DNA of 64,000 nucleotides from Ginglymostoma cirratum. Lineage: Eukaryota. Where the stretch lies: contig JAHRHZ010000004.1 in the NCBI GenBank assembly GCA_024137785.1, positions 11,418,393 through 11,482,392 of the forward strand, given 5' to 3'. Below are positions 9,382 through 59,705 of the stretch, in pieces (positions within the stretch are counted from its first letter, which is position 1; each line of letters starts with the position of its first letter). The position numbers and the translations under genes were made by a program. The notes under the pieces are model-generated. The model searched no databases, was not told where the DNA came from, and saw nothing but the letters and a program-made list of their open reading frames with translations.

Positions 9382-9559
9382 TCTCAGCAGGTTTAGCAAC
9401 AGTTGCGGGGAGAAAACAGAGTTAATGTTTTGGGTCTAGTGAACCTTCTTCTGAACTGTTTTTGAAACATTGACTCTGCTTGTTTCCCATAGATGCTGCC
9501 AGACCTGCTGAGTTTCTCCAGTAGTTTCATTTTCTGTTTCAGACTTTTTAGTTTTGTTT
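9382..9559. mobile_element. Fold-back Penelope-like terminus, family 2, with 14-bp TSD
   Basis: Inverted arms CTCAGCAGGTTTAGCA.../...TGCCAGACCTGCTGAG; exact flanking direct repeat TAGCATTTGGGAAG at 9368-9381 and 9560-9573. Confidence 0.75.
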
Positions 9560-10269
9560 TAGCATTTGGGAAGGGTGTCGTTCAATGGACAGATTAATGT
9601 TTGTTAAATCTCGAAGATCCACTTCAACGTCAAATTTTGTGAAAAGGAATAAAACTTGAAACTTGTGTTGGTTGATAGAATTGTTTATGATTGGTAAGGT
9701 AAGGAGGAGGGGTGTGGTAAGGTGATGTGTACAAGAGTTAGATTTCATTCCCCTTCCCTGAAATGGATTTGGTGGCAATTAATGCCACAATGGATATTAA
9801 ACAGCTATGGCTGAGGGATTGTCATGTGGGAAACTGACACAGGAAATCCTATCAGACCTGTTTGCAGTCTTCAATGCAAGGTCCTTTTGTTTTCAAGCTT
9901 GATAGAAGAATCCAATATTGGGAAGTGGGTGTCCACTGAGAACTATATCCTTATGTACCTAGCGATCCCTTTACCTCCATTCCCCAAAAGTTCTCCACAC
10001 TCCATAGTGTGACTTACCTGTAAGGTAGGAAGATTTCCTTTGCCCCATTAAGTGCTTGACAAGTATCTAAGTTAGTGAACCTTCGCTAAAGCAAGTGACT
10101 TAGGCCCCTCAGCAGCTTTCTGGCCGCTAGGCGACATCACTGCCACCTACATCAAATTCCATGCCATGTTATCAAAGTGGATCTCTTCGCCACTGGATAA
10201 GTGATAATGCCTTGACTAGCCTTCAATTTTCTGCATATATTTAAGTATACTTTTTGGAATAATCACTTT

Positions 10270-10615
10270 GTCGCCCCTATACCCTTTTGATTCCCTCATT
10301 ACTCAAGATTCTATGTACCTCTGCCTTAAAAATATTCAATGGCACTGCCTCTCCAGCTCTCTAGGGTAGGGAATTTCACACATCTACAACCCTCTGAGAG
10401 AAAGAACAGCTCCTCATTTCCATCTTATTTGGGGGACCTCTTATTTTTATCCCTTATCTCTCTTACATGAGGAAACATCCTTTCAGGATCTACCTTGAGA
10501 AATCCTTTCAGGATCTTGCATACCACAATAATATCACCTCTAATTCTTCTAAATTCCAATGAACACAGGCCCAACCTGTCCATCCTTTCCTCTCAAGACA
10601 ATCTCCACTAAGGAC
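10270..10615 (-). mobile_element. CR1 LINE 3' fragment
   Basis: CCTCTGCCTTAAAAATATTC...ACAACCCTCTGAGAG...ATCACCTCTAATTCTTCTAAATTCCA is antisense to the CR1 'LEFRR.RGD' region. Confidence 0.7.
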
Positions 10616-10899
10616 AGAAATCCACCAATAGCCCTTGAATTAGTGAGTCAGCAGGCTATTAGAATAAGGGATGGGTGGGGACCTCACAGACAATTTGCCT
10701 CCAGCTGTGCCTCAGTCAAGTGGGAAGAGGAACAAATATAGTCCAACTTCTCCACTGTAGCCAACACCTCCAATATTGCAACTGTGACTGTGCAAATCTA
10801 ACTCCTAGAATCTGACACCTCATCCATATACCAAGTAGTTGGCTTCCGAAGCAGATTGTCTTCAAAAGCCTACAGATTTTGAGCGATGTGGGAAAAACC

Positions 10900-11160
10900 T
10901 GTAATAGTCACAAGTCGCAATAGAGGTAATTCCAGGCATGAGAAATAAAAGCTGTTTTCACCTTTTTTAGTTGTTGCTGCACGTGACTGGTTTGTATTGC
11001 TGACTCTTATAAAGATTAATTTGCTGAATTTCCATCTAATAATTGTAATGATTTTTATGCAAATAAGGACCTGCGCTTGCATGATTGATAACATGCTCCA
11101 GGGTGAGCATTAGGGTCATTTGCCAAGTCTGCTTTGTCCTTTTGGGAAAAAAAATGGATG
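10900..11160. promoter_or_regulatory. Candidate enhancer / CNE
   Basis: Repeat-free; E-box CACGTG 10980-10985, Sox-like ATTGT 11042-11046, octamer ATGCAAAT 11057-11064, clustered TAAT. Confidence 0.35.
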
Positions 11161-11759
11161 TTGGCCCCAACTTGCCAATGACTGTCATGCATTATCCTCT
11201 ACTGTTTGGTATGAGTCAGGACAGGTACACTTTCTGTAACATATTCAGTACTTGGTGCTATTGGTTGTATTCCTACCCATCAACCAGAAGGCTGAGATTT
11301 TAAGTTCATTATCCAAGCAGCAACTTTAGGGAAAATGTATGAGTATGCACTGGTATGCCCTGACTGAGATTTCCTGATTAAGTAGCAGCAGCAAACTATC
11401 TCCCTGCAGCTAGTGCGCACTTCAGAAAAGGCCATTAAGGTATTGTTTCATATAGTGTGCTTAATGGCTACTCATTGAAAGCTAAATCAACTCACAGAAG
11501 AGATCACATGACTATAACAAGTCACCAGTGTAGTGTCCTCATAATTGCATTTCTCCAAATGTCCCTCTTTTCATTAAAAAAGCTTTGCACTTAAATTTGA
11601 GTTACCTAATCTACTCAATTTTATTAATTGACTTTTATTTATTTTCATTCACAATCAAGGTTGTGTTTTAATTCATGTCTTTCCCATTTGCATCAGTCTC
11701 TACAGATACATTCCATATGTAGTTTTTTTAAGTCATGCAGGTCTTCTAATGGTACAAGT

Positions 11760-13142
11760 ATGTGGTGTTGTTGGCTGTTCATCTGCTGGCAGTGCATTCC
11801 TGAGTTGATGGTCCTTCTCTGGCAAGTATTGTTCTTCAGGTGAATGTTGTTTCTATGGTAATTGTTGTTGTTCCACTTCGATTGTTGAGATACAATGAAT
11901 CCCAAGGACTAATGGTCATTTTGTGCTCTCATATCTTCCTAATCAGCTGTCAATAGTGAAGGTACAGCCCCTCCAATTGGTTGCGTATTTCTGTGGTTGT
12001 CAGGATGTAGCTGGTCCATGAATTCCTCTTATTGTGGTGGAAACCGCTCCCAAGTTGTCATGTAGGTTGACTCTTGTTCATATCAACCACTTGCATTCTG
12101 ACTGGCTCTCCAATGCCTAGATCTGGGAACAAATTCATCATTTTAACAAAATGAATTTGGCTTACTGTCTTTTTATTCTTGTTGCAGGGTCCTGTAAAGA
12201 CTTTAAGGTTTAACAAGTTTTTGGTGATTCGAGAAAATGTTTGAGTGCAGCATGATATTTGATAGTTAGACTGGATTACTTTCTACATGATCAGTGGATG
12301 CATTTCTTCACTCTTTACCTTTATACATGATGATGCCAACCTGTTGTATGGTGGAGAGTACATTGTCAGAGCCAATGCCTGGCTTCTCCTCAGCAGCCAT
12401 CTTTTATAGATTTGTTTTGCTTCCTGAAGCTAATTATTTGCATGAATAGTAATTCAACTCCTTGCAAGCAAACGATCACTTATCCACTGCTACGCCTGCT
12501 TCATTTTCTTTTGTGTAATCTCTTCTGCAATATGTACATACTGTATTCTGGCCTCAATCTTTCTGCTGGCCCTTCTGAAAATATTTCTTCCTTTTCTTCA
12601 TTATGTTCGTGTTAGGCCTGGACTGTCTCTCTTCAAAATGTAAAGCTTCATCCATTCTAGCATTAGTACTCTTTAGCTAATGATTCAAAAACTCAGCTTT
12701 TGTGCATATCGTTAGATTTTTTGAGGGTAGGATGCTTCTCTCTCAGCAGACTCGGTCTCATGGCAGAATCCCTTAAAGATAATTGTTATCTTTGCTGACA
12801 TTAGCATTTTTCATTTATCCAGACTCACTGGTATCAGCTGGATTTGATAGCCCACTCACACACTGATCACTGTTCTCCCTCTAATTTAATATTAGTACAG
12901 GATTAAAAACGTGGCTTTAAGGCATTCAAAATTTCTTGAATCAGGTTTTTCTGCTCCTCAGTAAAGTGTAGTTTATCATACTCTTTCCCCAGTACTGGTA
13001 ACAAAGAGTCACTCTTATTTGTTCAGACATCTTACTTAATTAAATAGCTATTTCATAATTTTGTTGAGACTAGACAGAGTTCCTTTTGCTTTCTCATATC
13101 ACTGTTCATTTCTATATCACGAATTAGTACATTCCTGGCCAT
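11760..13142 (-). pseudogene. Decayed Ty3/Gypsy LTR-retrotransposon remnant: gag followed directly by integrase C-terminus
   Basis: Manual minus-strand translation across frameshifts: MARNV..IEMNSD, SQQNYEIAI*LSKMSEQIRV, LHFTEEQKNLIQEILNALKPRF, SLLREKHPTLKKS, zinc-knuckle-like CTYCRR...ACKELNYYSC; then LFPDLGIGEPVRMQ and YHRNNIHLK (integrase tail). Protease, RT and RNase H not seen. Confidence 0.7.
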
Positions 13143-13431
13143 TTTGACCTACCCTGTACTTTAAACGTTGCAGACTGCAGTCAACATTTCCTTTCAGCTG
13201 CATGGCTGCTTCATAGTTCTGTGCATGGAGATCAGCTTCAGCAATGCTGATCGAGACATTGACTTCCACTTCCAGGAGTCACTACTACACACAGACCTTG
13301 GATGCACATGTAACCAGAAAGAAAATGAGACAGAACATTAGCTGCAATTCTAATTCTTCTTTACTTTTCTTTTACAATACCTGGCTTTCTTACAGCTCTG
13401 AAAATCGGCACAATTTCAGTTTCATACTTAT

Positions 13432-13789
13432 AGAATAGAACTCATAGAACCATTACAGTGCCGAAAGAGGCTGTCAGCCCATCAAGTCTGCACCAATCCT
13501 TTAAAGAGTATCCCACCCAGACCCAGTTCCCACCCTAACCCCATATTTCCCATGGCTAATCCCCCTAGCATACATACACATCCCTGAATGCTATGGGAAG
13601 TGTAGCACGGCCAATCCATCTGACCTGCACATCTTTGCACTGTGGGAGGAAACAAGAGCACCTGAGAACCCAAAACAGGCACAGGGAGAATATGCAAGCT
13701 CCCTGCAGACAGTTGCCCCAGGGTGGAGTCAAAGCCAGATCCCAGACACAGTGAGGCAGCAGTGCTAACCACTGAGCCACTGTGCACCC
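13432..13789 (-). mobile_element. HE1/V-SINE-like SINE
   Basis: GAGGCAGCAGTGCTAACCACTGAGCCAC identical to the copy at 3392-3725; V-domain-like core and CR1-like tail present. Confidence 0.85.
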
Positions 13790-14479: not shown

Positions 14480-14850
14480 AATTCCAGAGGAAGAGTAACT
14501 GCCCTTGATATTGAGGTACCGTTTCACTGTGCAATCATAACAAATTGGAACAAAAATAAGAATCAGGGTGAAAATCTCCACTAACTGGAGTCAAGAAAAG
14601 AAGGATCACTGGACCTGAAACTTTAATTCTGTTTTCACTCCTCAGATGCTGCCAGACCTGCTGAGTTTCTCCAGCAATTTCTGTTGTTGTTTCTGATATA
14701 TAGCATCGGCAGTTCTTAGGTGTTTCTCTAAAGGAAGATGGTTGTGGTTGTTGGAAGCCAATTAACTCATCACCAGGATTTTGCTGTAAGAATTCCTCAG
14801 GGCACTTTTCCAGATCCAACCATCTTCAACTACTTCATCAGTGACCTTCA
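14480..14850 (+). mobile_element. CR1-like RT fragment, interrupted at about 14598-14729
   Basis: ACTGCCCTTGATATT ('ALDI') and GAATTCCTCAGGGC...CCAACCATCTTCAACTACTTCATCAGTGACCTT ('IPQG..PTIFNYFISDL'); homologous to 26843-27325. Confidence 0.65.
14598..14729 (+). mobile_element. Penelope-like terminus, family 2, single arm
   Basis: AAGGATCACTGGACCTGAAAC...AGATGCTGCCAGACCTGCTGAGTTTCTCCAGCAATTTCTG matches family-2 arms. Confidence 0.7.
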
Positions 14851-15560: not shown

Positions 15561-15966
15561 TTCTAGTTTCTTACCAATTCTCTCTCCCCTGTATTTGATT
15601 GGACTGGACATTCTGGGATGAACTTCTTAGCATTTTCCCCAGAACAAGTGCCATGATTCAATGAGATGTCCGTTGTTTTGTTTCTTTCATTATGCAATGT
15701 GGGTTGGACAATGGCCTTCTCTATGAACATCTCCATGTCATGTTCTTTCAATGATATACACTGTCCGAGTTGTCAAATTCCACGACACCTTTGGAAGCAT
15801 GTGCTTTGATTTCTAAAGTTTTCTCCCCGACAACTTACCCAAAGCTGCTGACTTACCCTTGTGTACATTATTGTCATTTTGACAAACCTCCACATTTATG
15901 ATTGAGATAACAAGCATGGGGCTGGATGAACACAGCAGGTCAAGCAGCATCATAGGAGCAGGAAAA

Positions 15967-16000
15967 CTTGACGTTTCGGGCCTAAACCCTTCATCAGAAA
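15967..16000 (-). ncRNA. Minimal hammerhead ribozyme motif (minus strand)
   Basis: Reverse complement reads UUU-CUGAUGA-AGGGUUUAGGCCC-GAAAC-GUC-AAG. Confidence 0.65.
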
Positions 16001-16003
16001 ATC

Positions 16004-16039
16004 ATTTCTGATGAAGGGTTTAGGCCCGAAACGTCAAGT
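16004..16039 (+). ncRNA. Minimal hammerhead ribozyme motif (plus strand)
   Basis: CUGAUGA 16008-16014, GAAAC 16028-16032, GUC 16033-16035; identical to 12-47. Confidence 0.7.
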
Positions 16040-16154
16040 TTTCCTGCTCCTATGATGCTGCTTGACCTGCTGTGTTCATCCAGCCCCACACCTTGTTATC
16101 TCGGATTCTCCAGCATCTGCAGTACCTTTTATCTCTGATACATTTATGATTGAG

Positions 16155-17340: not shown

Positions 17341-17444
17341 AAGATATGGGCAATTTTCCCCCTTCTCGCTAGTAAGATCCTGCAAAAGTCAATAAATGAA
17401 TAAGCGGACAATTCTTACTTGATGCACAATGAATAAGACCGTTG

Positions 17445-19330: not shown

Positions 19331-20029
19331 TTAACTTCTATTGAAGAAAATAAAAGCAGTGGTCAGGCAAGGAGTTAGAAGAAAGATGACTAGGGTTGAT
19401 AAATGTCAATGCATATAATTTGGCTGTGATTAAGATCTTATCTTAGTAGGAACTAAATGGAAAGGATTTAATAAAATTCCAGCAAGGAGACCCTGGCATA
19501 CAGCAATGTCAGTGTGTTTGTGAAGTTGTTTTTTGTTTAACAGGAGAAAAAGGCCTGAACAGTGAGAGCCAGGAAGGAAGAAACTGATATTCAGGGTGTC
19601 AAGCAAAGGGATTAGTGACCCCAGGTGAAGCCAGCGCACTCTCTTTTTTTTTATTTTCCTTTTCAGACCAGAAAATCTTGCACAAATAACATCTATGTTA
19701 GGGAGAAAGAGAGAAAGGGAAACATGGGAACAAGAGAGGAAAGTTGAGCGCAGTTGGTCAGCAGAGAAGGTCTCTCTTTAGATCTTGGGGCTATTCCAGA
19801 TCCAAAACATGAGGCGGGTCATGGTGCCAGGGGAGTGGATGAGTCAGGCATGGTGCCCATTCCTGATGATTATCCAGAGACTCCTACTGCAGCGCAAAAG
19901 CAAAGTACTTTGGGTTCTGCCAATTTGGAAAATTTAACTGCAAATGCTGGAATACTCTGCAAATCTATCTATGGAGGGGAAAATTCAGTTCACATTTCAG
20001 ATCTGTAAGGTTGGGTGATCTAAAGATGG

Positions 20030-20428: not shown

Positions 20429-22814
20429 AGAGGTGTTGGTACCTTAACTGGCAGGAACCCCAGACTGAAGTCATGGAATGGGGGCTTGGCAGCAATGCCT
20501 AGGTGGCCCTGCCAACCTATGTTCTATCTTTTGAACATGAGACCCACCACCACATCTTACCCATGAGACTGTTAGCAACCAAATAAAGTTTGCTTTTTAC
20601 AGTTTCTGGGTGATTACTGCCCTATCCATCACTGGATGAAACCCAGCACTGATGGGATAAGACCCTTAAAGGGTCACTAAATACTGAGTCTGCTTTACAA
20701 AGTTCACCTTCCACTGGTGGTGAGCCCAAGTGAGGCCCTCAATGGGCAGTAAAGCCATGTCTCAATTGCAACAAAGCAGAATGGCTGTTCATGCGTCGTC
20801 TTCTTAATCAAGGTGGATGAAAGAAAATACAAAGTCCCCAGTCAGCACCTTCTGCTTGATTAAATTCTAGCCTCTTACCTTGAATCATCCTTCAGGACAG
20901 TGATTTAAATTCCACTCATTAACTCTGTTTCTCTTGTCACAAAGGATGACAGATATGCTGAATATTTCCAGCACATTTTTGTTTCTATTTCAGACTCTTC
21001 TTGTGAAGTGGGGTAAGAACAGGCTCAAACTCAGCTCTGATGCTCCCCTAGAACAGAATTAATTTAGGAATAAATGGGCAAAGTAACGATTTGGATCATG
21101 CACAGGAAGTAGGTTGGCCCAATGGAATTGTGCTTCAGTAACGTTCAGCCTCTTCAGGATTGGGAGGTGGTGGTAAGGATGGAAGGGGCCCACTAGGAAA
21201 TAAAAATTGCACGTATTTAAAGGAAGCACACCACTAGAAGAAGATGAGAAGTGGAGGGGGATGTTTCACTCTCACACCTGAGTAGAAAGTAATTCTGCCC
21301 TTCAGGTCAAGTTTGGGGCATTTAATCAGATAGGAACATGCAAAGTGTAAATGTCATCTCTTTCCCATGGCTTGTAGACTCATCTCTCAATTCCAATTAA
21401 GCTCCTTATGTGGAAACACTGAAGGTTGTCAACCCACCACCAATAGTGTTCAGGGAGTGGAAGGGCTCTTATGTAGCAGTGCTGGTGTTCCCTATCTCTG
21501 AGCCAGGAGACTTTGGTTCAAGTCCCACCTTCTCCAGAAGTGCGCATCACCTCCGAATAGCTTGATTATGAAATTAACCAGTGATAGACAGGACAATGGC
21601 CTTGTAAAAACATTTTACAACCAAATGGGGGCTCCCAGGTCAAGGGTGTCCCTTATTGAAAGAAACTCCCTGTTTGGCCAAGGGACCTAGCGTGGGAAAT
21701 AAGATTCAGCTGAGAGCTACGCTCTTGCCTCGTTGCCAATGCCTCCTCTCTGCCCTGTACTGCAACTTCCATTTGGCATTACAATTCCACTCTCAATCAC
21801 CCATTGCCTCATTGATCCTAGGCCTTAGTGTGTGCATCACTGGTAGCTGCCAACACTTCACCGGGTTCACATTGTGCGCAAGACACAGCTCTCCATCTCT
21901 GCCTGGCAGCTCTAGGGATGATTGAAGCAGCAACATTTCCAATCCCCATGGTCCTTGCTCAGCAATGGCTAACTGCTGGTCACCTAAGTGTATGAGGGTG
22001 CCTAATTTGGTGAGGCTTCTTTGAAGGAAATGATGCGGGGCACAAGAAACCTCCCTCTCTACACACTCCCCACACTACACATCATCTGCATGAAATGCCA
22101 ACTCTGCTCTCTGTCTCTAAGAAACATTAGTGTAACAATACAACTCACCAACAGCCTCCACTAGTAGCTTTTAAATATTTATCAGTCTGGAGGGAGTGGT
22201 GTTCTCATGGCCTGGGAAACATTCCCAGTCTCTGATGCATTCTTTCAGACCAGAGAAGTATTTTATGTGCACACATTTAATAAAACATGCTTTGCCAAAA
22301 ATCACATGGAAGAAGAGCCAACTCTCCCCTGATGTGATGCTATGTACTCGTTGACAAAATCAATTTGCTGGATACTTTATACTGGATGAGATTGCTATAC
22401 AGGAAAAATGTGTGATATAGAGCCAAGCATTGCTATTCTCTTGGGCAAAAATATTTTGACAAAGCTGTTTTTTGGCATTTCAGGCAGATGCCCAGTGTAA
22501 GGATAATGAAACAGGTCATTACTTCCTTCGTAACTTGATACCGTCACAATGTTCTTCTTCCCCAGCCAACTACCCCCAAACATTAAAAAAAGGTCCTTTT
22601 CCATTAAGGTTATGTTTCTTCAGTTTCTTGAAAACTCAATTCCCTTTGAAATCTTCTTATTTGTTCTCCTTCTACAATCCAGGTTCAAAGTGTACCAAAG
22701 CTGGACATTCACAGCAACATTACAAAGGTGTTACATCATGTCATCTGGATCTGAAGAGAAAGGGCTTACATAGATACTACTAACCACCATTTAGGAATGT
22801 GAAAATACATTAAC

Positions 22815-24095: not shown

Positions 24096-24199
24096 ATAGT
24101 GTTATAGTTTCTCCAATTTCCTTTGTCTTTCCTTTGACAATGGTCTATACTGGTGCAACTGAGCCACTTTTGGGATGGACATTTCTGTCCTCCACACAG

Positions 24200-25282: not shown

Positions 25283-25505
25283 GAGAAAAACTGAAAGAAC
25301 TGCGGGTGCTGTGAATCAGAAACAAAAATCGAAGTTGCTGGTAAGGCTCAGCAGGTCTAGCAGCATCTGTTGCGAGAAATCAAAGTGAATGTTTCAGGTT
25401 GTGTGACCCTTCCTCAGAATGGGGTTCTGAAACATTAACTCAGATTTCTTTCTACAGATGCAGCCAGACCTGCTGAGCTTTTCCTGCAATTTCTGTTTTT
25501 GTTTG
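25283..25505. mobile_element. Fold-back Penelope-like terminus, family 2
   Basis: Inverted arms GCTCAGCAGGTCTAGCAGCATCTGT / ACAGATGCAGCCAGACCTGCTGAGC; the right arm lacks hammerhead stem II. Confidence 0.75.
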
Positions 25506-26734
25506 AGGCCATTTATAGCTCTATTTAAATGCTAACTCTTTCCTTTCTACAAATGCAGGATTCGAACTCCGGTCCTGTCAGGTTATGATATGAGCCCAGT
25601 TAAGTATTTGGAATCTTTAAGCGAGAACTTGGTAGGGTTTCTCAGTGGTGAAATTTCCACAATTTCTGTCAATAATTTTCTAGCTGATAATTTCCTCATT
25701 TGTTAAATACACAGCCATTGATATTCAGCTGCTATAAACTTAACGAAAAATTAAAATTCCCTTCTGCTAGAACTGATGGTAACAGTACAGAAGGATAAAT
25801 AATAATCAACTGAGAAAATACAAGCAAATATTAGGGAATTTTTATGCTTTAAGGATGAAGGAAAACATTCCAGGGTTATACTGCCTGTTCTGTAAACTTA
25901 TTCTGGCCACTTCACTCCCTTACTCATCCCTGTTCTCCCTCAGCTACAGACTACTCCACTCCTAAATATTTCATCTGTTTCCCTCCTATCTCTCTATTCC
26001 TTTCTCACTCTTTCTATCACACCTTGAGATAATGCATTTCTGTTGAAGCCTAGGTTAACAAGTAGACCACAATCTCCCTCATTTTAACCTAGTGTCAACA
26101 TTCACACCAGAATGGTGTGGATGGTACTACAGTCAAGTACATGACTGGTCTTGTGTTACTTCCACATAGTCACACAACAAGGAGGGGTGTCTGGGCAGAA
26201 ATCCTATTTGAATTATCACCCTCACCCCAGTATCCAGGAGAGCTGAGACCAACTGTACTGCCTCCAGCATCATTACAAATAAGATTGGCTAACTTGGCAT
26301 ACGCCAAAGATAAAATTGGTCCTTCACCCATTTACTGAATGACGCCACACTGTCATCAAGGCAGTTCAAGCCCTTTTTAAATTGAAATCATGCCCAAATG
26401 TTGCATTTCTGCTCATTTGTTGAATCAGTCCAGCTGTCAAGGATTATTTGAGTACGTGTTAATCAAGTTTCTAATCTCAGCGCAGTTTCCTTGTGGCATC
26501 AGAACAAGCCTTTAGTCAGTAAATTTTCTCAGTTTCCCTATTCATTGAATCTTAGTTTAAATGTGGAAGACCAAATAAATATTGCTTTCTATGTTGTCAA
26601 TCTTAAGTTAGACAAAAGGTGGAGGAAGAAATTATGATTGAGTTGGTTCTTTCATGTACTCCCATCTGGGATTAAGTAATTCACTATTTGATTAATCAAT
26701 TGGAGTCAGTGAGAATCAGAACAGTCCCTACCTG

Positions 26735-26840
26735 AATCATCAACTTTCCTGCTCCTCTATTGCTGCCTGACCTGCTGTGGTCCCCCAGCTCCACACTGTG
26801 TTATCTCTGACTCCAGCATCTGCAGTTCTTGCTGTCTCTG
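26735..26840 (+). mobile_element. Older family-1 Penelope-like terminus
   Basis: TTTCCTGCTCCTCTATTGCTGCCTGACCTGCTGTG...TTATCTC...CTCCAGCATCTGCAGT aligns with 48-130. Confidence 0.7.
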
Positions 26841-26842
26841 AG

Positions 26843-27325
26843 AGGTAAACTCTCACTGCTTGGTGTCAAACCTGGCACAAATGAGGATGGTGCTGGTTGT
26901 TGGAGGTGAGTCTTCTCAGCTTCAGGACATCTCTGTAGGAGTTTCTCAGCATAGTATCCTGGGCTCAACCATCTTTAGCTGCTTCATCAATTCCCTTCCC
27001 TTCATCAAAAGGTCAGAAGTGGGGATACTCACTGATGATTACACAATGTTCAGCAACTCCTCAGGCAATGAAGCAGTCCATATTCAGATGTAACAAGATC
27101 TGGACAACATCTGGATATGAGTTCACAATTGGCAAGTGACATTCGGGCAACACTAACACCAGTCAATGACCATATCCAACAAGAAGTAATCTAATCATCA
27201 CACGTTGACATTGAGTAGCATTGCCATCACTCTGCGTCCCCATCATCAACATCTTTAGAGTTATCATTAATGAGAATCTGAATTGGGCAAGCAATATAAA
27301 TATACTGTGGCAATAAGAGCAGGTA
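26843..27325 (+). mobile_element. CR1-like reverse-transcriptase fragment
   Basis: ORF 26860-27093: GVSQHSILGSTIFSCFINSLPFIKRSEVGILTDDYTMF, a degenerate GVPQGSVLGP...(Y/F)ADD RT core. Confidence 0.8.
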
Positions 27326-28764: not shown

Positions 28765-30375
28765 CTGGTTGGAAAGGCGATGTGTTGCAGCTGGTGCAAT
28801 CCACAGTGACCACACCTGCATCAAGTGTTAGCTGCTCAAGGAAACTTGGCTCAGAGTTGATGAGCTGGAGTCCAGGTTTGAACACTTGGTCAAGTTGATC
28901 AGAGAGGGGAAAGAAACTGTGTTTCCAAAGGCAGTCACACCTTTAGAATAATTGCATCAAATTTAGTCTGTGGTCAGTGACAGGAGGTGGTGACTGAGTG
29001 AGGCAGATATTGGGATTCACAATTAGGCTTTGGAGGAGGCTCAGCCAGTGCCTTTATCCAATAGGTATGAGGTTCTTGCTCCTAGTGTAGGTCAGGGTGC
29101 AGATTGCAGGACAGATATGCAAACTGACCAGATTACCATTCAAATGGGGAGAGAAAAAAGGAATGTATTCGTTAAATTAGAGAATAGCATCGGTAGGGGA
29201 ATAGATTCTGTTTTCTACAGCCAGGAGAGAGGGCCCAGAGGCTATGGTTACTTACCTGATGGCAAGGTTATGGACATCTCTTCTGGTCTTGGAATGGCAG
29301 GGAAAAGATCCAGTTATTGTGGTCCATATAGGTACCAAAGACTTGGATAGGACTAAGAAAGAAATGCTGCAAAAGGAATATGAACACCTTGGGGCTAATT
29401 CATGAAGTAGAATCTTAAAGGTAAAAGTCTCAGGATTACTACATCAGCCATGTGTAAATTGCCATATAGTAAATAATATTAGAGAGGTAATATATGGCTC
29501 AAAATATTGGTGTGTGAGAAATTGATTTTGAATCATAGGGCACTGGCCCCAATAGAGCATGTGCATGTGAGTGATTTAGAAATGAGAGTAACAAAAGGAG
29601 AATTTGCTGGGAAAGCTCAGCAGGTCTGGCAGCATCTGTGAAGAAAAATTCAGAGTTAACGTTTTGAGTCCAGTGACCCTCCCTCAGAATAGGGAAAGGG
29701 TCTGAGGAAGGGTCACCAAACCTGAAACATTAACTCTGATCTTTTCTTCATAGACGCTGCCAGACCTGCTGAGCTTTCCCAGCAATTTCTGTTTTTGTTC
29801 CTGATTTACAGCATCCGCAGTTCTTTCCGCTTTTATTGAGTACAGGTGCAGTGTTGTGGAGCAGTGAACAATAAACACAATGTGACAGGAAGGAGCAGAA
29901 AATATAAGTGAAGAATCAGCAGAAAATTAGAATCAGAAAAAGAATTAATGGTAAGAAGTCAAAGTTTAAGGCTTTTTATCTGAATGTTCACAGCATTTGA
30001 AACAAGCTAGGTAAACTGATGGTGCAAATAGAAACAAATTGATATAGCCTGGCAGGCATTGCAGAGACATGGTTGCAGGGTGACCAAGACTGGGAACTCA
30101 ATACTCAAAGATATTTAACTTTTGGGAAAATATGAAAAAAGGAGAAGGAAGTGGGGTAGCTTTGTTAATAAAATATGGATCTGAATGTGGTGGTGAGCAG
30201 TTATTTAGATGCATTAGATTGTGATCTAAAATCCATCTGTGCGGGAAATAAGAAATGACAAGGAAAAGAAGTCACAGGTAGGAGTCGCCTATAGGCTTCC
30301 AAAGAGTTACCTCACCCCAAGTCAAAATATAAATTAGGGAATAATGGACTTGTATAAAAAGGGCACTAGAGCCTA
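28765..30375 (+). mobile_element. CR1 LINE 5' portion: ORF1 (zinc finger + esterase-like) and ORF2 AP-endonuclease, decayed
   Basis: HSDHTCIKC*LLKETWLRVDELES and PVPLSNRYEVLAP...ENSIGRGID (ORF1); KALYLN-like motif at about 29965, GIAETWLQGDQDWELN and GSGVALLIK (APE). Confidence 0.8.
29591..29837. mobile_element. Fold-back Penelope-like terminus, family 2, inserted in CR1
   Basis: Arms about 29591-29689 and 29701-29799 around an 11-nt spacer; degenerate hammerhead motif on each strand; possible short TSD GAGTA (29586-29590, 29838-29842). Confidence 0.8.
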
Positions 30376-35790: not shown

Positions 35791-36394
35791 ATAGCGAGCT
35801 CTTCTCGATACAATGAGTAGTAAAACTGGGTTAGCATTTCATGTGAGTTTACCATTGGGACAGGGTAGGTAGTTACTGAGACAAGTTTGGGATGATAGCT
35901 CGGGAAAAGTCTCTAGGCTTTAAGGAGAGAAAATCTCCACAGAACACAATGAAATTGACACTTGGCTATAAACACATAGGACTCAGCCCTGGCTCTGTGT
36001 GTTTTTGCAGAATTAATCAACCTGCATGAGTTAGCATGGTCCCCCAGGATGATGTTGCATTATAATTACTGTCAGATCCCAAAATGACTTGTAAGCATCC
36101 TTGTTGCAGACTAACAACCCGACAGCGTTTATTTTGTCTCCTTATAACTGCAGTCTATTAAGGATGACAGAAAACAATGCTCAGTTGGAATATGTAATTA
36201 ATTGAAGATCACGCCTTAATTGTTCAGAGATAAGAAAGACATGAGGAGGGTTCTGGGTAGTGTGATAGCAGGTTTGTTATCATGAGTCATTCGTTGGATG
36301 GAAGCACAGCCATGGACCTAAAGCATTGATTTTAAGGCTTGGTAAAAATTTCTAAGCTTCATTCATTATTAAAATTAAAGTACCATTAATGTGT

Positions 36395-36490
36395 GATAAC
36401 AAGGCGTGGGGCTGGATGAACACAGCAGGCCAAGCAGCATCACAGGAGCAGGAAAACTTGACGTTTCGGGCCTAAACCCTTCATCAGAAT
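36395..36490 (-). mobile_element. About 95-bp family-1 Penelope-like fragment with intact hammerhead core and 14-bp TSD
   Basis: Minus strand AUU-CUGAUGA-AGGGUUUAGGCCC-GAAAC-GUC; exact repeat TACCATTAATGTGT at 36381-36394 and 36494-36507. Confidence 0.8.
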
Positions 36491-37974
36491 TATTACCATT
36501 AATGTGTTCTTTCTTTTTTCTACAGTGTTCAGTTTACCTCTCTCCTTCCCTCATTCCTCTATTTCTTCTTTCTTCCCAGACCACTTGCCTGTGAAATATG
36601 CAGGTTTCCTCTCTCTCTCTCCCTCTCTGCCAAACAAAATCCTCTGACGAACGAGGAGGAGGAGGTATCCTGTATTCAAGGCAGTAGTGGAAATCCTCTA
36701 TAATTGATCATTGAGAGCTTAATCCAGACCAAAATGGCTTTAATAAAGGCCTTTTTGTGTTGCTGTGAATTCCATTAGAGACACCTCAATAGAATCCTCT
36801 ACCTTTCTCTCCAGCAAAAGAAGTCAAGAAAAATATTTGTGAACTTGCAGCCTGGTCAAGGTTATGTCTAAATACCAGAATAGCAGGTCTGTGCTCCAAT
36901 TGTGACTCACTGTTTGAGGAGGCATTACAGGAGAGGTGGCAAAAATATAGGACAAGGACTGTATTTGGTTTAATTTTGAATCTTCTTTTCACCCTGGTTA
37001 AATTATTCAAACCCCATACTTACTAACAAGCATGGAGAATTATCAGATGGGTGAGATACTGAAAAACAAAATGATCACGGATTTCAAAACAAGCTGGCAC
37101 TTTCAAGAGTGTACACAAGTGTGGTAGTGAGGAGTGGGAGTGAAGATTTAACATTTTCATAAATCATATAAAAATTGTACAATCATCCAGAGACATTGAC
37201 TATTTTTGAGCTGAGTAAAATATGTATGGAATACATAGATAACACAGCTCTGGCTCCTCTGGCTGATACTTAACAGCCTATTAAAAATTATTCTATAAAT
37301 GCACTCCCTTCCACAAAGAATTTATTAGGCTGTAACTTTAGCCAAGAATCACATGAGATAGGAAGTTGAGCCTGTCTTATGAATATCCTTTTAAATCCGA
37401 GGAAGATCTACTAAAAAATAAACTGTCCCATTAAATGAAAAGCTCTTCCATTTGTTTTAAGGATCATTTCTTGCTGATTGTGATAAAATTCCTAACGTTT
37501 CTAGATTTGTTTTTGTTTGAAAATTGATATTACCTATTTACTACTTTTTTCCTACAAATCTACCTCCCTCCGCTTGAGAAGTTGACCAGGATGTGGTTCC
37601 CCCAACACTCTGTCAACCATGTTTGCTTTTCAGGTGAATATAGACAGTTTAATCTGGTAGGCGACATCTTAGCCAAGCTCTGTGCTGTCCTTGGTCAACA
37701 TCTGTCAATCTACATACAGCATTCATCAATATAACATATAAGCACACACATTCAATCAGACAAGCACTTAGCTCCTTTGTCATGGAGGGAGGTGGTTATG
37801 AGGACCCCTTAAGAAATAAGCAAGACCTTAGATTTTAATCCATGGCACTGCATTAGAATATGACAGCACACCAAGAGAAAACATACTGGCTAAATCTAAT
37901 TAAAGAACAATTTTGGATTGATGCCAGGAAGAACTTCTTACAAACGGTGGCCAAAACCTGGAAACGTCTAAAAC

Positions 37975-38075
37975 AAAATAAGCAATAACTAATTGCTGGA
38001 GAAACTCAGCAGGTCTGGCAGCATCTGTGGAGAGAAACATAATCAACATTTTGGGCTCATTGACACTTGTTCAGA
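37975..38075 (-). mobile_element. Family-2 Penelope-like single arm inside an old CR1 tail
   Basis: AATTGCTGGAGAAACTCAGCAGGTCTGGCAGCATCTGTGGAGAGAAAC; CCTGGAAA present on both sides. Confidence 0.65.
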
Positions 38076-38639
38076 TTGGAAATCCTGGAAAACTCTTCTT
38101 GATCACCTGATGGGACTGAAACTTGAGATTTAATTTTAAAAAGTTAGGTGATGTAATGGGAAGGGAGGAGGTGGTAAATGTAAGGATTTTCAATTCTTGA
38201 TGTCCAAATTAGATTCACTTCTTGAGTTCCCTCATCTGTATTTACCTTGCAATCTTGATTTCAACTATAGCCCTTTGACTTGGATATCAAATCATAAAGT
38301 GTCACCATACAAACTGTTCAATACTGCTGGTAAGCTGAAATCACGATAAATACAAACATGGGAACAGTTAAAAAGGCCCATTTTACAGTCCAGACCATTC
38401 CATCCGCAGATCAAGCACAATCTGATTGAATGCAAGCTCAATGATTAACCTTCAGAAAATCATTTTATGCCTGTCAAAAGTCAATCAGAAAATTCTTTAC
38501 CCGTTATGCAGTTTTAGGTATTACATTCTCTTGACTCTATGTGGCAGCTTAGGAATCCTGATGTTACACGAACCATTTGATCAGCTGTACGTACTTCCAT
38601 GCATTTGGAAATTGTACCTGTCACTTCATTATTTAGGAA

Positions 38640-43469: not shown

Positions 43470-43820
43470 AAATTCATTCATTCTCAAAATATAGTGATGC
43501 TGGCTAGACCAGAGTTTATTGTCCACTCTTAATTGCCCAGAGGGCAGTTAAGTGTGAAAAATTGCTGTGGGCCTGGAGTCACATGTAGGCCAGACCAGGT
43601 AAGGATGGCAGTTTCCTTCTCTAAAGGACATTAGTGGAGCAAATGGGTTTCTTTTTCCCCCTTGGCATAGGGTATGGTTTTATGTGCAACATTAGACTTT
43701 TAATTCCAGATTTTTATTGAATTTAAACTCTACCCTCAATGGCAGGACTTGAACCCAGAACATTACCTGGGACACTGCATTAATAGTTTAGTGACAATGC
43801 CAATATGCCATTGTTTCACC
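43470..43820 (-). mobile_element. tRNA-derived SINE, family B
   Basis: CTGGAGTCACATGTAGGCCAGACCAGGTAAGGATGGCAGTTTCCTTCTCTAAAGGACATTAGTG. Confidence 0.8.
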
Positions 43821-51068: not shown

Positions 51069-51660
51069 AGAGTCATAGAGATATACAGCATGGAAACAGA
51101 CCCCTCGGTCCAACTCGTCCATGCTGACCAGATATCCTAAATTAATCTAGTCCCATTTGCCAGCATTTAGCTCATATCCTTCTAAACCGTTCCTATTCAT
51201 ATATTCATCCAGATGCCTTTTAAATGTTGTAATTATACCAACCTCCACCACTTCCTCCATACACACACTACCCTTTGCGTGAAAATGTTGCCCCTTATGT
51301 CCCTTTTTAAATCTTTCCCCTATCACCTTAAACCTATGCCCTCTAGTTTTGGACTCCCCCACCCTGGGGAAAAGATATTGCCTATTTACCCTATCCACGC
51401 CCCTCATGATTTTATAAACCTCTACAAGGTCACCCCTCAGCCTCCAATGCTCCAGGGAAAATAGGCCCAGTCTATTCAACATCTCCCTATAGCTCAAACA
51501 CTCCAACCCTGGCAACATCCTTGTAAGTCTTTTCTGAACACTATCAGGTTTCATAACATCCTTCCTATAGCAGGGAGACCAGAAATGAATGCAGTATTCT
51601 AATAATGGCCTAACCAATGTCCTGTACAACTGCAACATGACCTCCCAACTCCTATACTCA
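51069..51660 (-). mobile_element. Young CR1 (HER1-like) LINE, 5'-truncated
   Basis: Open 163-aa ORF 51147-51638: LYRTLVRPLLEYCIHFWSP...RLGLFSLEHWRLRGDLVEVYKIMRG...KTRGHRFKV; 3' tail at 51069-51146. Confidence 0.9.
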
Positions 51661-53582
51661 ATTAATATAATATCTCACTGCATCCTCAGGATCCAACAAC
51701 TTTTATTTGGGCGGTGCCTTTGTTGTAATTATTTCAAGGTGCTTCCCAAGAGCATTATAAAACAAATGAGGAGCAGGCCTGAGGGCTAAATAGTCTACTC
51801 TTGCCCCTAGTTTTTGTGTTTCCTACAATACGATACAGCAAATAACATAAGAAGAAATTGGACTCTTTATTTCATGCCCCACTTTGAGCATTTCAGTGGG
51901 TTGGGGAGGGATGTCAAATTGGTCGTGAGTCTTGGCTTCCATCTTTCTTCCTCCAGCTGAGCTCACCTCCATAAAGGGGTGCGGGTGGGTGTGAGGATGG
52001 TAGTGTCCAGGTACTAAAATCAACAGTCCAAACCGCTGTATGGAAATAAATGATTAAGTGTCAATTTAGCTTGTTAATACCTTAATTGACCCCAGCATCA
52101 CTCTGCCCAGACCATCACATGTTTGTTGTGGATAGTAGCAAGAGAGTGGGCGGTGCGTGCTCTTAAGTTTTTAAAATGGTAAGTGGGATGTAAGTTACAA
52201 TTTGAGGGTGCCCTTTGCCCGTGAGGGGCTGTCCCCAAGAAGAAAGCATCTTCTCCTTCCTTCCTACTCACTTTTTTACTTCAAAACCCATCTCTCTCCC
52301 TAAAGAAGGAGCAGCCTTCCCACTCCTCCACTGATAGAATGCCCTGAAGTAGACAATTGATGCCCTCTTAAGGGCCTCATTTCACTGTGGCTAGCATTAA
52401 CTCAATGGCAGGAAGGAGTTCTCACATCGTGGTGAGTTTGATAAAGAAACCCTGCCATGTTTGGTTGGAGTAACCAAGGAGGAGAAGGTCACTTTTCCTA
52501 TGGCATTCAGTGCCCCAATTAGGGGATCCAGCACTGGGAGGGTGGGCCTACTCTAGTACTCTACTGACCGCCCCCCTTCCCAAAACCCACCTTCAACCCT
52601 CACACACCTGTATTAAGATTCCTCCTTGACCTAAGATCTTGAGTGGATTTCCTACCAGGGATACCCATTGCCTGCCCCGTAGCAGTGCTGTGTTCAGAAG
52701 ACCTCCTGGCCACTGTTTGGAATGGCAGTTCTCAGTAGATGGAGCCAAGCCCCATTACCCTGGGGTCTCTGAACCTGGGAATATCTGCCCCCTGCCAACT
52801 GAGTGCCTGAGTGGCATGGGATGCAAGCATCTCAAAAACAGGCAATACAGCGGTTTCACTGGGTCTCTCGTGGTAGATGTGACCCACATCACCTTCTCAT
52901 GTAAACACATGAGCAAGGAACAACAGTAGGCCACTCAGCCTTCAAGTCTGCTCCACCAGTCAATAAGATGATCTTTTTGCCCACATTCTCGCCAATGGAC
53001 AACAATCCCCCAGTACTACACTTGCATCATTAAATATCTGCATTGTGTGCTCAAAAGTGTGACTTTCCCAACTAATGCTGCTCTAGTGTTGTTAAATATA
53101 GTGTACATGAGGCAAGGGAATGTGTACATTGCATTGACTGTCTATCTCCCTCCTGATTTCCTGTGAAAAAAAAATTCTAGGCCAGTGAGAACCAACAAAT
53201 GATCCCAAGAAGGGAATTCAGTGGCAGAGCCTCAAGCCAGACTCCCACGGGCTCACAGTTGACATAGCTGTGCTTCAAGGCTGTGTTTCAGCAACTTCAA
53301 ATATTTTTGTAACTTTGTGCTCATCAAACTAAGGTCAAATTAAAAACAAAACAATTTTCACAGCATTTGGCGTTCCTGGCTTAGGTATAAAGTAGATAGA
53401 TAGAAAATCTCATTTTCCTACCCAGAATGCATTAAACCTGACGTTGGAGGACCCCAAGAGTTGAAATGTGATGCTGTCCAATTGCCCACAACATTACGCA
53501 GTAGCCTCTCCTGTTGGAGACTATTTTGTGTGCAAACTTTGAAACTTTACTGCTCACATAATGTGAGACGAAAGGAATCCTT

Positions 53583-53805
53583 ACAGAGTCAGAGGGTAAT
53601 ACAGCACAGAAGTAGACCTTTTGGTCCAAACAGTCCATGCTGACCATAATCCCAAAATAAAATAAGCCCCACCTGCCTGTGCTTGATCCATACCTCTCCA
53701 AACATTTCTTATTCATGTACTTATCCAAATGTCATTTAAAAGTTGTAACTGTACATGTATCCACCACTTCCTCTGGAAGTTCATTCCACACACAGACCAC
53801 TCTCT
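53583..53805 (-). mobile_element. CR1 LINE 3' end
   Basis: MDKYMNKKCLERYGSSTGRW in ORF 53432-53728; tail homologous to 51069-51260. Confidence 0.75.
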
Positions 53806-55599: not shown

Positions 55600-55990
55600 C
55601 CCAAGAATGTGAACTAGATTCAAGTTTAAACTCTATAGCATCTACGACAGCTTAACATTATAGTGCAGTATTAGAGAATACTCCACTGTTGAATTTACTA
55701 ACTTTCAGAGAAGAGATAAAACCGAAGTCCATCTGTCCTTTCAAATGGACATAAATGATGTCACGTTACTATTTGAAGAGAGCAGGCAAATTTTCCAGAC
55801 CAATCTTTAACCCTTACTCAACATTGCTAGAACATTATCTAACCATTATCTCATTTCTGTTAGTGGAACCTTGTGTGTGAAACTTGGCTATAACACTTTC
55901 TGTATTTTTCAAAAGTACTTTCTTGGCTGTAAAATGCTTTTTGGGATGTTCAGAGGTCATGCAAGGAGCTTTTTAAATCAAGTCTTGTCC
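55600..55990 (+). mobile_element. DeuSINE-like (SacSINE1/AmnSINE1-related) element
   Basis: GAGATAAAACCGAAGTCCATCTGTCC...GGACATAAATGATGTC...CTATTTGAAGAGAGCAGG resembles the Deu-domain; L2-type tail TCAAAAGTACTT..TTGGCTGTAAAATGCTT. Confidence 0.6.
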
Positions 55991-56159
55991 TTTCCGAATG
56001 GAAGCCAGGTGTTTGAGGCAAAAAGATGGATATGCAAACCTATAAATTATTAACACTCTCCTGCTTAAAATTACCGTATCTGTTCGTTAACATTTCAGTT
56101 TATCCTTAATCTAGATTAATGTATTATTTTCATTGAGTATTTTCTGGTGGATTTAGATG

Positions 56160-56292
56160 TAAAAGGTAATGTTGCCATAGTCTTACCAATCCGCAGGGCT
56201 GCTCCCTCAGTAGAGAGAGAAGACTGGCACTGGTTTAACCAGAGGATCACCACACCTCAGGCAAGGGGAGGGGCTGAGGAGGAGAGCTCTTT
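56160..56292 (-). mobile_element. Short SINE-like repeat (family D), 3' part
   Basis: Reverse-complement similarity to 44280-44400. Confidence 0.6.
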
Positions 56293-57285
56293 ATTTGTTT
56301 GGGATTCTGACATTAGGCTTGGTTTTAAAATTAGCCTTTGAGTAGCTTGAATTGACCTTGCAATGGGTACAAATAATTGGTTTCACTAACAAGGAAACCC
56401 AGTTATGCTGAAGGACAGACTGATAAAGGAGGAGTGCCTCTACAATCTTGGTGATAAAGGACTTTTGCTATCTCATCCATGATGCAAATAGAAGAGTAAC
56501 TCACCGAGTCACATTGTACAAATACCACCTTTGCACTTATAATTGCATTTAGTTACCTGTTTTGACAATAGAAAAGTAGACAGTAACAAGCTGGTGCCAG
56601 TTTTTTTTGTGTAGGTCATCCTGGGTAGAGATTGTGGATTACAGGAACATTAGTGATAGTGTCCAACCTCTGATTGAATGTACCACTACCCCTGTAGCAC
56701 TTAGCACCCACTGGAGTTCACAGGTAATTTAGAGATTCATTTCCTGTTGAATAATACTGCTTTCTTTCTCTTCCTGTCCCAATGTCACCCCACTCAACTC
56801 CCCTCCTTCTCAAACACATTGGCTTTTCTACCAGTACAGTCCTTTATTTCCCCTAATATGCTGCAGCCCTCCATCTATTTGACATTTTCCACGTGTACAT
56901 AAAAACGAAAGCTATTTTTACCATGGGAAGCATCAAATGTAGTTCTCATCGCCATCTACTAGCCTACTTTCTAAGCAGAGTTGCTTGTTTGCAATTAAGA
57001 GTGGGAACTCTAACTGGTTTCCTTTTTATTTCTTTTTCAAATTGTTTCTGTTGCCACTTCCCCTGTAATTAGGAAAACTCAGCACAGAAATAAATGCCTA
57101 CCCTCTTAGGCAAGTCTGGATGCCAGGGTGGGTCATTCGATCGGATGGGCGGCTAGCAGGTGAATATGCCACTGATTCCCACTTCCAACCTGATTAAGTC
57201 TAGGCCAAGATAACCTAGAGGCAGCCTTCCTGACTTTCAGCCAACCAAATCCTCCTAAGTGGGCAATTAATGGTTAATTAATGCC

Positions 57286-57555
57286 TGGTAGCATGGAACT
57301 TAAACATTGCTACAAGGAGACTAGAAGTTGAAGCTTTGTTTTTGCTTCCATCAGAAGTAGGACACAAGAAACAGACCGGAAATAGGATATGCCATTTTAT
57401 ACAGGATGAGAAGAGGGTGCTGATTGGTTGAAATGTAATTAGCTTGGAGATGAGCCAAGAACAGTTAACTGTCAATCTTATTTCTGAGACCAGACAGGTA
57501 GATATCGATTGGTCAGGGTGTTGCCATGAGAATGCAGCAGATTTTGGCTGTCTCC
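57286..57555 (-). mobile_element. Family-4 repeat (Penelope-like terminus)
   Basis: Homologous to 43085-43365; minus strand has eroded CUGAUGG...AAAGCUUC. Confidence 0.55.
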
Positions 57556-59044
57556 ATGAACTCTATTTTTGAGAAAGGTGCAATGTATGTACAAATTCCT
57601 TTTGCCCAGATAAAACAGGGTCCTGAGTATTTAAGTATGTAGATCTAGCACACACAAATACATCATAGAGCAGGCCAAGCTGATGATCTTAAACTAGGTT
57701 CTGGTATAACTCTTTACACAATTTGGATTATTGAATAAGTAATTTCCATAATCACAACTAATGGTGGATTAACTTTTCTGAAGCTTGTGGGCATGGCTGA
57801 GCAGAAGCAGCATGCTGCCAACTGTGAATGATCAATGACATGTCTTGTTTGAGATTATCTGCCAATCATTGGGATGGACAGTCTAAATATCTGGCATCAC
57901 ACTGGCACTGAAACTCATATATACCGTAACTCAGTTGCGTGGTAGTCAAAACATACTTTTGGCTTGATGTCTGCATGCTGATAGTGGAGAAAGCCTCTTG
58001 TGGATTTGCTGCATGAGGCAACTAGCTTGTTCAAAGTTTTGAAACATTGTCGACTTCTGGAGTCACTGGAGGTAGACTGGGCACTGCTCAAGTTCATTTT
58101 CATTAGTTTTTGTGGTATACAATGAGTGATTATTTGATCAGAACATCAGGTGTCGCGCAGGATGATTTTGATATGGTGTATCTCAACGTCAAGCTTCAAC
58201 AGTAAGCAGCTAGCTTAGAGCCCTTTTCATGAGCTTATCAATAAGAATAATCTTGTAGTGTGTGGAACTCTATGTGTATATTGACTGGCAAATGCAAGCT
58301 TTTGGTTGAAAATAGCTGATAATCCATTGCCCAACTTTTCAACCAATCCATTAAGGAAGGGGAGCTGATTTGACAGCTCCATTTCAATGATGATTCAACA
58401 GCAGGATGGAGTTTCTTAAGCTGTGTCAAGAAAATCTTTGATTGAAGTATCGAAAATGTGTTGGCTACGTAACAAGATGTGCAAGGGATAGGAGGTTAAA
58501 GGTCTTTCCATCAAAAAATCTGCTACTTATGGTAACCAACAAGGATTTTAGCAAGAACTGGGTCTAAAGGGAATTCCATGATAATGCTACCTATTTAGGT
58601 GTAAATAGCGTCCACTGACTAAATCATATGGTTTTTATACTTCACGTTATTTTGAGTTATCTACATGTTTTGTGTTTTTGATTATTTCTGAGCTCATCAA
58701 GATGACAATTATTAGCACTGCAAACAGAACTTATGTCAGATGTCAGCATCGAGCATCCCCCCAATCAACTATCGCATGGTCAAATGCAGAATAAGGCAGA
58801 TTTTATAATGAGTGTTAAACAGCATTATCAGGAATTTATGGTAATTGCATTCACCAAAATGCTAGAAATAGCACAGAAAGGAAATTCAACCACCTGGGGC
58901 TTTAATATCATTGGAGTGTGCCTATGGTATGACTGAGCTTAATAAATCCATATGCTTTTTCCTGGTTGTCTATTCGACTTTGTGAATTAGACTGAAAATT
59001 GGGGGTTGAGTTAAGCTAAAACTTGCAAAACGAATTTCTGCGAG

Positions 59045-59145
59045 CTCTTTGAGAAACTAACATCCCAAGTGGACAGTAGAAAGCCACATTATGTGGTGTA
59101 GCCCCTTAGATTTACAAAAAGCCTTTGATAAAGTCCCTCATTTAG
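59045..59145 (+). mobile_element. CR1 RT fragment
   Basis: FEKLTSQVDSRKPHYVV and LDLQKAFDKVPH, matching the D.VYLDFQKAFDKVPH motif. Confidence 0.65.
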
Positions 59146-59445
59146 CTGTTATTAGAACGGAAAGCGGTGGCAACTCAAAATCTAACTAGGATGAGGGGAA
59201 TTGCTGAAGACAGCAGTGCTATTTGCTATTTACAACTCAGGCTGTGAGGAGGAGAAGCACCAAGTGAATTAATAAATAAGGGTAAATACCAATGGGCCAG
59301 CAAATCTCAATTGCAGTATGACAGCAGGTAGAGCACGTCCAAGAGGAATGTTGGGTTCAGTCCAAAGTGGGATGCATTGCCTGGGGAAAGCAAGATCCCA
59401 CCTGACACCACCACCTCAGAGGTAGCATACTCAGGCAATAAATAA

Positions 59446-59705
59446 CCGGAACCAAAACAGAAATTGCTGGGAAAAATCGGCAGGTCTGGCAGCATTCGTG
59501 GAGAGAAAGCAGAGTTAACATTTTGGGTCCAGTGACCCTTCTTCAGAACTGGATTCTACAGAACGGTTCTGAAGCAGAGTCACTGGATCCGAAAAGTTAA
59601 CTCTGATTTCTCTCCACCAATGCTACCAGACATGCTGAATTTTCCCAACAATTTCTGTTTTTGTTTCTGATTTCCAGCATCTGCAGTTCTTTTGTTTTAC
59701 TTTTG
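59446..59705. mobile_element. Fold-back Penelope-like terminus, family 2
   Basis: Arms about 59446-59551 and 59565-59670; minus strand AGUU-CUGAAGA-AGGGUC[ACUG]GACCC-AAAAU-GUU-AACU; plus strand CUGAAGC-AGAGUC[ACUG]GAUCC-GAAAA-GUU. Confidence 0.8.

Follow-up and report, generated by a model that had tools for sequence, protein, structure and literature searches.

Insertions of endonuclease-positive (EN+) Penelope-like elements (PLEs) are described as carrying a head-to-head inverted, 5'-truncated copy that adjoins the 5' end, and an optional tail of 30-40 nt on one arm (PMC8557442, Craig et al. 2021; PMC3846280, Arkhipova et al. 2013). PLEs also carry a minimal type I hammerhead ribozyme motif, composed of CUGANGA, a bulged A, a 4-5 bp stem II, GAAA, an ACGU palindrome replacing helix III and a short stem I, which occurs mostly singly and in some cases as opposite-strand pairs (PMC4209133). 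In the Poseidon element of Anolis carolinensis (PAc), the one PLE studied in vitro, the hammerhead lies about 110-150 nt upstream of two tail-bounding 3' ends, the protein cuts and extends both strands of the target, a prerequisite of twin priming, and insertion products are unchanged by catalytic mutants (Frangieh et al. 2024, PMC11167929). The origin of the inverted pseudo-long terminal repeats (pLTRs) and the role of the hammerhead in vivo are stated to be open in PMC8557442, PMC4209133 and PMC11167929. Here we analyze a 64,000-nt stretch of Ginglymostoma cirratum (assembly GCA_024137785.1, contig JAHRHZ010000004.1, positions 11,418,393 to 11,482,392; hereafter the window, numbered from its first letter), whose short insertions share with these elements the hammerhead motif with its features listed above, its mostly single and in part opposite-strand arrangement, the distance to two 3' ends, a one-sided tail (here 38 nt), and a head-to-head inverted truncated partner in 6 of the 13 insertions. 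Their arms start preferentially at a point just 5' of the hammerhead.

Arm starts cluster just 5' of the hammerhead

Arm starts are given relative to C3, the C of the CUGANGA core, negative values being upstream. A profile hidden Markov model (HMM) scan of the window yielded 19 arms in 13 insertions, on which all start counts are based; five further rows with E above 0.7 were excluded, and the weak row 151-190 (E 1.1) was retained because it pairs with an arm at 196. Ten of the 19 arms clearly start at -1 to -13, and an eleventh, old one (190) probably does so. One (copy 1-147) runs off the window start at -15 or beyond, five begin inside or past the core (14598, 26731, 20004, 20919 and 196), and the short arms of the pairs at 25283 and 9382 lack about their first 17 nt. 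Five of the six head-to-head pairs have an arm clearly starting 1-13 nt upstream of the core: the two C3 positions are separated by 10, 14 and 22 bases in the pairs at 15904, 29591 and 59446, and the intact arm reaches at most 9 nt (25283) and at most 8 nt (9382) before its partner starts. Two single copies bounded by target-site duplications (TSDs), at 36395 and 38074, start 6 and 5 nt upstream of C3. The spacers of the pairs measure 8-22 nt and are each different, and the arms do not fall into separate left-type and right-type groups, which together argue for independent events. Under exponential truncation with a mean of 60-500 nt, and for a 15-nt interval picked after the data were seen, 9 or more of 19 arms fall together with a probability no higher than 4e-6, and 7 or more of 13 insertions with one no higher than 2e-5. 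The clustering of starts just 5' of stem I is real and statistically sound. At the centre of the starts stands an A, at -3 or -4, among pyrimidines, and an initiator-like YYANWYY is present in 6 of 11 arms.

A first-pass annotation of this DNA had proposed that both arms of the pairs at 15904, 29591 and 59446 begin just upstream of the core, that the intact arms at 25283 and 9382 and the single copy at 36395 end at the same place, that random truncation should have scattered these breakpoints, and that the insertions are independent; the gaps, probabilities and differing spacers given above agree with all of this. It did not list the single copy at 38074, and two of its statements need narrowing: CUGANGA stands letter for letter in 7 of the 11 core-bearing arms, the core being mutated in one arm each of 29591, 59446 and 9382, and the common breakpoint is a hot spot that is not universal, the counter-examples being copy 1-147 and the five arms that begin inside or past the core. 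Descent from a single palindromic master, as of a unit resembling a miniature inverted-repeat transposable element, would leave a shared spacer and arm-specific lineages, and we found neither.

The hammerhead motif and the affiliation of the insertions

Each arm bears a minimal type I hammerhead motif, and self-cleavage is predicted from its sequence. The core (CUGANGA and GAAA..UH) is complete in 6 of the 11 core-bearing arms and decayed in 5. With stems I and II and the palindrome replacing helix III, 82.9% of cells are paired versus 16-54% in slid controls; only one of eight pairs changes on both sides, and covariation is therefore weak. The scissile bond is predicted at C3+27 in family 1 and C3+29 in family 2 (the two families being about 60% alike and alignable end to end), about 30 nt downstream of the apex of the pairs. 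An Rfam scan gave no match to a hammerhead model at E up to 1 and two weak matches only. Monomer folding gave no signal, with z-scores of 11 folds between -1.2 and +1.2; stem I, of 3 bp only, is absent from the predicted monomer folds, and two copies are predicted to co-fold via their stem II arms, without a helix III dimer. A hammerhead pattern scan returned no matches in viral contigs; all 18 metagenome loci from it were rejected as chance matches, the likeness being confined to the motif surroundings, as was one genome locus.

The insertions likely derive from the pLTR of a PLE. Their arms stop at one of two 3' ends, C3+92/93 and C3+131, which are 38 nt apart, and the 38-nt tail is found on one arm only in the pairs at 15904, 25283, 29591 and 59446. 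Whole insertions measure 95-260 nt. TSDs, sought in 12 insertions against a null with a maximum score of 12 in 40 trials, are exact over 14-15 nt in three, near-exact in one and not above the null in eight, among them 25283, 29591 and 59446. No open reading frame (ORF) of at least 120 aa overlaps any arm among the window ORFs (no Pfam scan of the window was made). The frame 3-146 (+) is open for 48 codons across a family 1 arm, and a search with it gave nine protein candidates, none at E up to 10, and no matches among representatives. Head-to-tail tandem units, as in retrozymes, were not found; all window copies are single or head-to-head.

The same hot spot in contigs of related species

We aligned contigs of 4 of 24 runs, from three organisms (A, B and C) that are relatives with at most 0.21 of words in common, to positions 1-180 of the window, with the family 1 copy 1-147 as the reference; on this scale C3 is 16 and the predicted cut falls after 43. 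The same start hot spot is seen in these contigs. Depth at positions 1-6 is 181-467 thousand, versus 1-274 past the 3' end, which indicates that the family extends upstream in many copies, by at least 15 nt from the core. The gain in depth is maximal in the bin 13-18 in all four runs, at 1.6-2.8 times the preceding bin. A rough three-class fit, calibrated on the true 3' end and made on contig depth, which is not copy number, assigns 31% to copies that run through, 53% to copies starting near 12 and 16% to later starts in run X14, and 53, 33 and 14%, respectively, in run X18; in X14 its residual is 69k against 377k for smooth truncation.

Junctions give a more direct view of the starts. From at least 25 distinct joints we set aside 12 (six skips, three with unknown letters between the parts and three opposite-strand joints of ambiguous direction), and the remaining 13 provide 14 readable starts, all junction counts being among the joints listed: six at 11-13, five at the predicted cut and three at 49-57. 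One of the hot-spot starts follows one additional G, such as the copying of a cap would produce. Of the 32 pieces listed, nine carry a long unmatched stretch on the 5' side; their starts are at 5, 10, 13, 13, 13, 15, 20, 21 and 31, a sample biased by the choice of the longest. A separate joint in run X11, from 144 to 106, may mean that the 39-nt tail lying between the two 3' ends was duplicated in tandem.

The starts at the predicted cut all come from run X3, where five joints, departing from 82, 84, about 98 (two of them) and about 137, resume at the bases directly behind GUC, at depths of 18-320 and with landing points read from the letters between the joined parts. Four of the five carry one common variant and may share one master, and two show partial microhomology; treated as two independent events, with about 27 positions available to each, they have a P of about 0.01. 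Such joints are absent from the rows listed for the other three runs, and the old window arm 20919 begins near the same position. The X3 joints suggest that cut RNA may at times be copied: RNA cleaved at GUH would, by a weaker inference, yield a second class of copies from about +28. This class is a possible lead, from sequence, for hammerhead cleavage in vivo.

A proposed start of the template RNA at the hammerhead

The reading we prefer, though we rate it marginally short of an even chance, is that short pLTR copies begin at the start of the template RNA, 3-5 nt before the core, and that head-to-head pairs are two separately primed cDNAs joined to each other. By analogy with the Anolis PLE, the PLE protein would nick and extend both target strands and start reverse transcription inside the RNA at the two tail-bounding sites. 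Primed 90-130 nt below the RNA 5' end, it would run off and leave a cDNA of strong-stop type; one cDNA would give a single arm, a cDNA on each strand a head-to-head pair with a variable repair spacer, and longer read-through RNAs would give the copies that extend upstream. The ribozyme would mark the start by sitting at the RNA 5' end, not by cutting.

Arms with the short end (92-93 nt from C3) and arms with the tail end (131 nt) stop together, and the stop is therefore positional, without a length limit. On this ground we rejected a pure length limit as the principal cause; Chlamys inserts that lack a hammerhead have a median length of 128 bp (PMC9977147). We also rejected a splice acceptor, suggested by the Drosophila virilis intron that ends at stem I, because family 1 has no AG at that site and in family 2 arms the AG lies within the copy. 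Separate priming is best seen in the pair at 15904: its inverted arm, with C3 at 15997, equals copy 16-109 in every column, and its partner differs at three neighbouring positions; both variants are present in the relatives' runs, and the outer end of the inverted arm is the 3' end of the TSD-bounded single copy 36395. The better match to a separate copy and the shared outer end fit separate priming and fit self-priming less. An internal promoter within the pLTR is known from D. virilis Penelope (PMC2377424).

The first-pass annotation had attributed the breakpoint to the ribozyme or to an RNA end near it. An RNA end emerges as the likeliest cause. Cutting by the ribozyme is not supported as the cause, since the predicted scissile bond lies some 30 nt downstream of the apex. 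The annotation's fold-back of one cDNA conflicts with the 15904 inverted arm, whose identity is 100% to a separate copy and 97% to the arm it is paired with, and "fold-back" is probably the wrong term; a strict stop conflicts with the rough fit, which puts 31-53% of depth in copies passing the hot spot. About half of the window's arms begin away from the hot spot.

Several observations weigh against the preferred reading. YYANWYY, a weak motif, also stands ahead of 18 of 76 TTCTGA words in the window. The RNA 5' end is deduced from the ends of genomic copies, and contigs cannot show RNA ends. The sampled runs are from relatives, not from the source organism; in X18 the three-class residual is 59k against 132k, smooth truncation being only about twofold worse; a faster-changing upstream C-tract could supply part of the depth step; and the three ambiguous opposite-strand joints would, were they head-to-head, have starts distant from the hot spot. 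Evidence for two templates comes from one young pair, whose pattern gene conversion could mimic, the older pairs being too decayed to tell. No ORF for a reverse transcriptase or endonuclease is linked to the repeat, so that PLE membership rests on architecture. Finally, the start in D. virilis is 120 nt upstream of the end of the intron that abuts stem I, not beside the stem (PMC2377424, PMC4209133).

The main rival is stalling at the folded or protein-bound motif: reverse transcriptase on a longer RNA would halt where the hammerhead ends on its 5' side, or at the C-rich tract immediately upstream. The starts do coincide with the 5' strand of stem I, and longer copies in the same family imply that longer templates exist. 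Yet this stem has 3 bp, is not formed in the monomer folds, and those folds have the flat z-scores given above; moreover, reverse transcriptase generally meets its block at the 3' side of a structure, as it enters, rather than as it leaves. Hammerhead cleavage in PAc requires bound protein, in favour of a protein-held block, but the product size there is unaffected by hammerhead mutants (PMC11167929), and we regard stalling as unlikely. Equally unlikely, in our judgement, is snap-back or self-priming, in which one cDNA folds at the stop and is copied back, an endonuclease trimming the tail from one side. It has been proposed for palindromic PLE junctions (PMC3846280), with the tail attributed to endonuclease resolution (PMC8557442), and the 15904 arms, identical over 84 nt, and an X14 junction with a perfect 9-nt inverted apex at position 11 would suit it. 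Against this, the 15904 arms bear two different pre-existing variants, the 8-22 nt spacers are not self-complementary throughout, and snap-back accounts for the inversion, not for its position.

Clustering by descent, through amplification of a few short non-autonomous masters (single or palindromic, with the whole hammerhead needed in cis), strikes us as quite improbable. Some junctions have depths of 102.8 and 319.6, compared with about 5-13 in unique contigs, which shows that some breakpoints have been multiplied, and the exact TSD around the 70%-alike arms at 9382 is what an old unit might show after inserting anew. The spacers, on the other hand, all differ; identity to the own partner (84, 86, 82 and 70%) ranks highest or close to highest among the values of each arm, without left-type or right-type groups; and the longer copy 1-147 belongs to the same young subfamily. 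That hammerhead self-cleavage sets the apex we hold to be very improbable, 5 of the 14 readable junction ends notwithstanding, all from X3, that begin just after GUC: at every cited apex the core is kept in full and the cut is predicted some 30 nt further downstream, so that cleavage does not set the apex, and in Anolis no RNA-seq reads ended at the cut (PMC11167929). Cleavage could enter in another way. In a tentative extension of the run-off reading, somewhat unlikely as a whole, the copies would record two RNA 5' ends, one on either side of the hammerhead: a capped start 3-5 nt ahead of the core, and some 30 nt further on an end made by the hammerhead's cleavage, through which the cap would be lost. 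Twin priming on the two nicked strands, with two RNA templates, would produce the inverted pLTR. If this is true, the second start class is genomic evidence of cleavage by the minimal PLE hammerhead in vivo.

Features of the window

The arm-to-arm complementarity of five inverted pairs is 100, 84, 87, 82 and 75%. The stem II gap in the short arms at 25283 and 9382 may be due to a later deletion between two CTGA words or to truncation. The young family 1 copy 1-147 directly abuts the decayed pair 148-265 and may have inserted into it. The exact 14-nt TSD at 9368-9573 encloses arms only 70% alike, by chance survival or by re-insertion of an old unit. The 22-nt spacer 59547-59568 includes a further, short repeat of the bases with which the arm begins, the trace expected if the template was switched repeatedly at one point. 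Elsewhere, 51147-51674 (-) is a 175-codon open frame with a related copy at 53585-53773, which we take to resemble the end of the reverse transcriptase of a CR1-type long interspersed nuclear element. At least two other dispersed repeat families resembling short interspersed nuclear elements are present (7762-8081, 43501-43811 and 61743-61920; 3517-3720 and 13577-13785).

Table 1. Hammerhead-bearing insertions and their target-site duplications in the window.
Feature	Position	Strand	Remarks
Left TSD, 15 nt	15892..15906	+	exact copy at 16140-16154; last 3 nt also fit outer end of inverted arm
Family 1 inverted arm, no tail	15904..16000	-	C3 at 15997; 100% identical to copy 16-109, 97% to partner
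Family 1 forward arm with tail	16003..16139	+	C3 16008, start 5 nt upstream; predicted cut after 16035; tail about 16102-16139
Right TSD of 15904 pair	16140..16154	+	exact 15-nt repeat of 15892-15906
Family 1 single arm, no tail	36395..36493	-	C3 at 36487, 6 nt from TSD; TSD 36381-36394 / 36494-36507, 14 nt exact
Family 1 single arm with tail	1..147	+	extends 15 nt or more 5' of C3 (16)
Old family 2 head-to-head pair	9382..9559	.	left C3 9453, core mutated; right arm without stem II
TSD of 9382 pair	9368-9381 and 9560-9573	.	14 nt exact
Family 2 pair	25283..25505	.	tail-bearing arm on minus strand, C3 25417; partner without stem II; no TSD above null
Family 2 pair	29591..29837	.	C3 29687 (-) and 29702 (+); 14-nt spacer; tail on + arm only
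Family 2 pair	59446..59705	.	C3 59546 (-) and 59569 (+); 22-nt spacer; tail on + arm only
Family 2 single arm	37965..38079	-	C3 38074, start 5 nt upstream; TSD 37953-37964 / 38080-38091 (12 nt, 1 mismatch)
Decayed sixth family 2 head-to-head pair	148..265	.	adjoins copy 1-147; right arm start about +64
Family 2 single arm with tail	14598..14730	+	start about 3 nt inside core
Older family 1-like single arm with tail	26731..26843	+	start about +16
Old family 2 arm	20919..20994	+	start about +27, near predicted cut
Very old family 2 arm	19896..20004	-	start about +15 to +17

Comparison with known systems

The window insertions resemble the described EN+ PLE insertions in the size of their TSDs (12-15 nt here, 8-10 bp there) and differ from them in lacking an ORF between the repeats, being only 95-260 nt whole; a fixed breakpoint at the hammerhead is not mentioned for EN+ PLE insertions in the accessible portions of PMC8557442 and PMC3846280. 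Opposite-strand motifs are 100-700 bp apart in PMC4209133, compared with 8-22 nt here, and the portion of that study available does not map insertion ends onto the motif; the PAc study likewise maps the starts of reverse transcription, not its 5' stops, in the part accessible (PMC11167929). Non-LTR (long terminal repeat) retrozymes are similarly short, non-coding, type I hammerhead-bearing and tied to PLE pLTRs (PMC7229834; bioRxiv 10.64898/2026.07.22.740005), but they are head-to-tail tandems with canonical hammerheads in PMC7229834, whereas the window copies are single or head-to-head and have TSDs. A literature search, with most subscription journals outside its reach and sources seen in part, found no report of PLE 5' ends clustering at the hammerhead or of twin priming, and the start boundary may be implicit in curated repeat-database models. 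Abundant short copies with a sharp 5' end make the genome a map of the stops of reverse transcription, in which a count of the arms and their subfamily-diagnostic bases would, with no bench experiment, tell twin priming apart from snap-back and run-off apart from stalling. The kind of element and the insertion layout are known from PLEs, and the sharp start point refines known Penelope behaviour.

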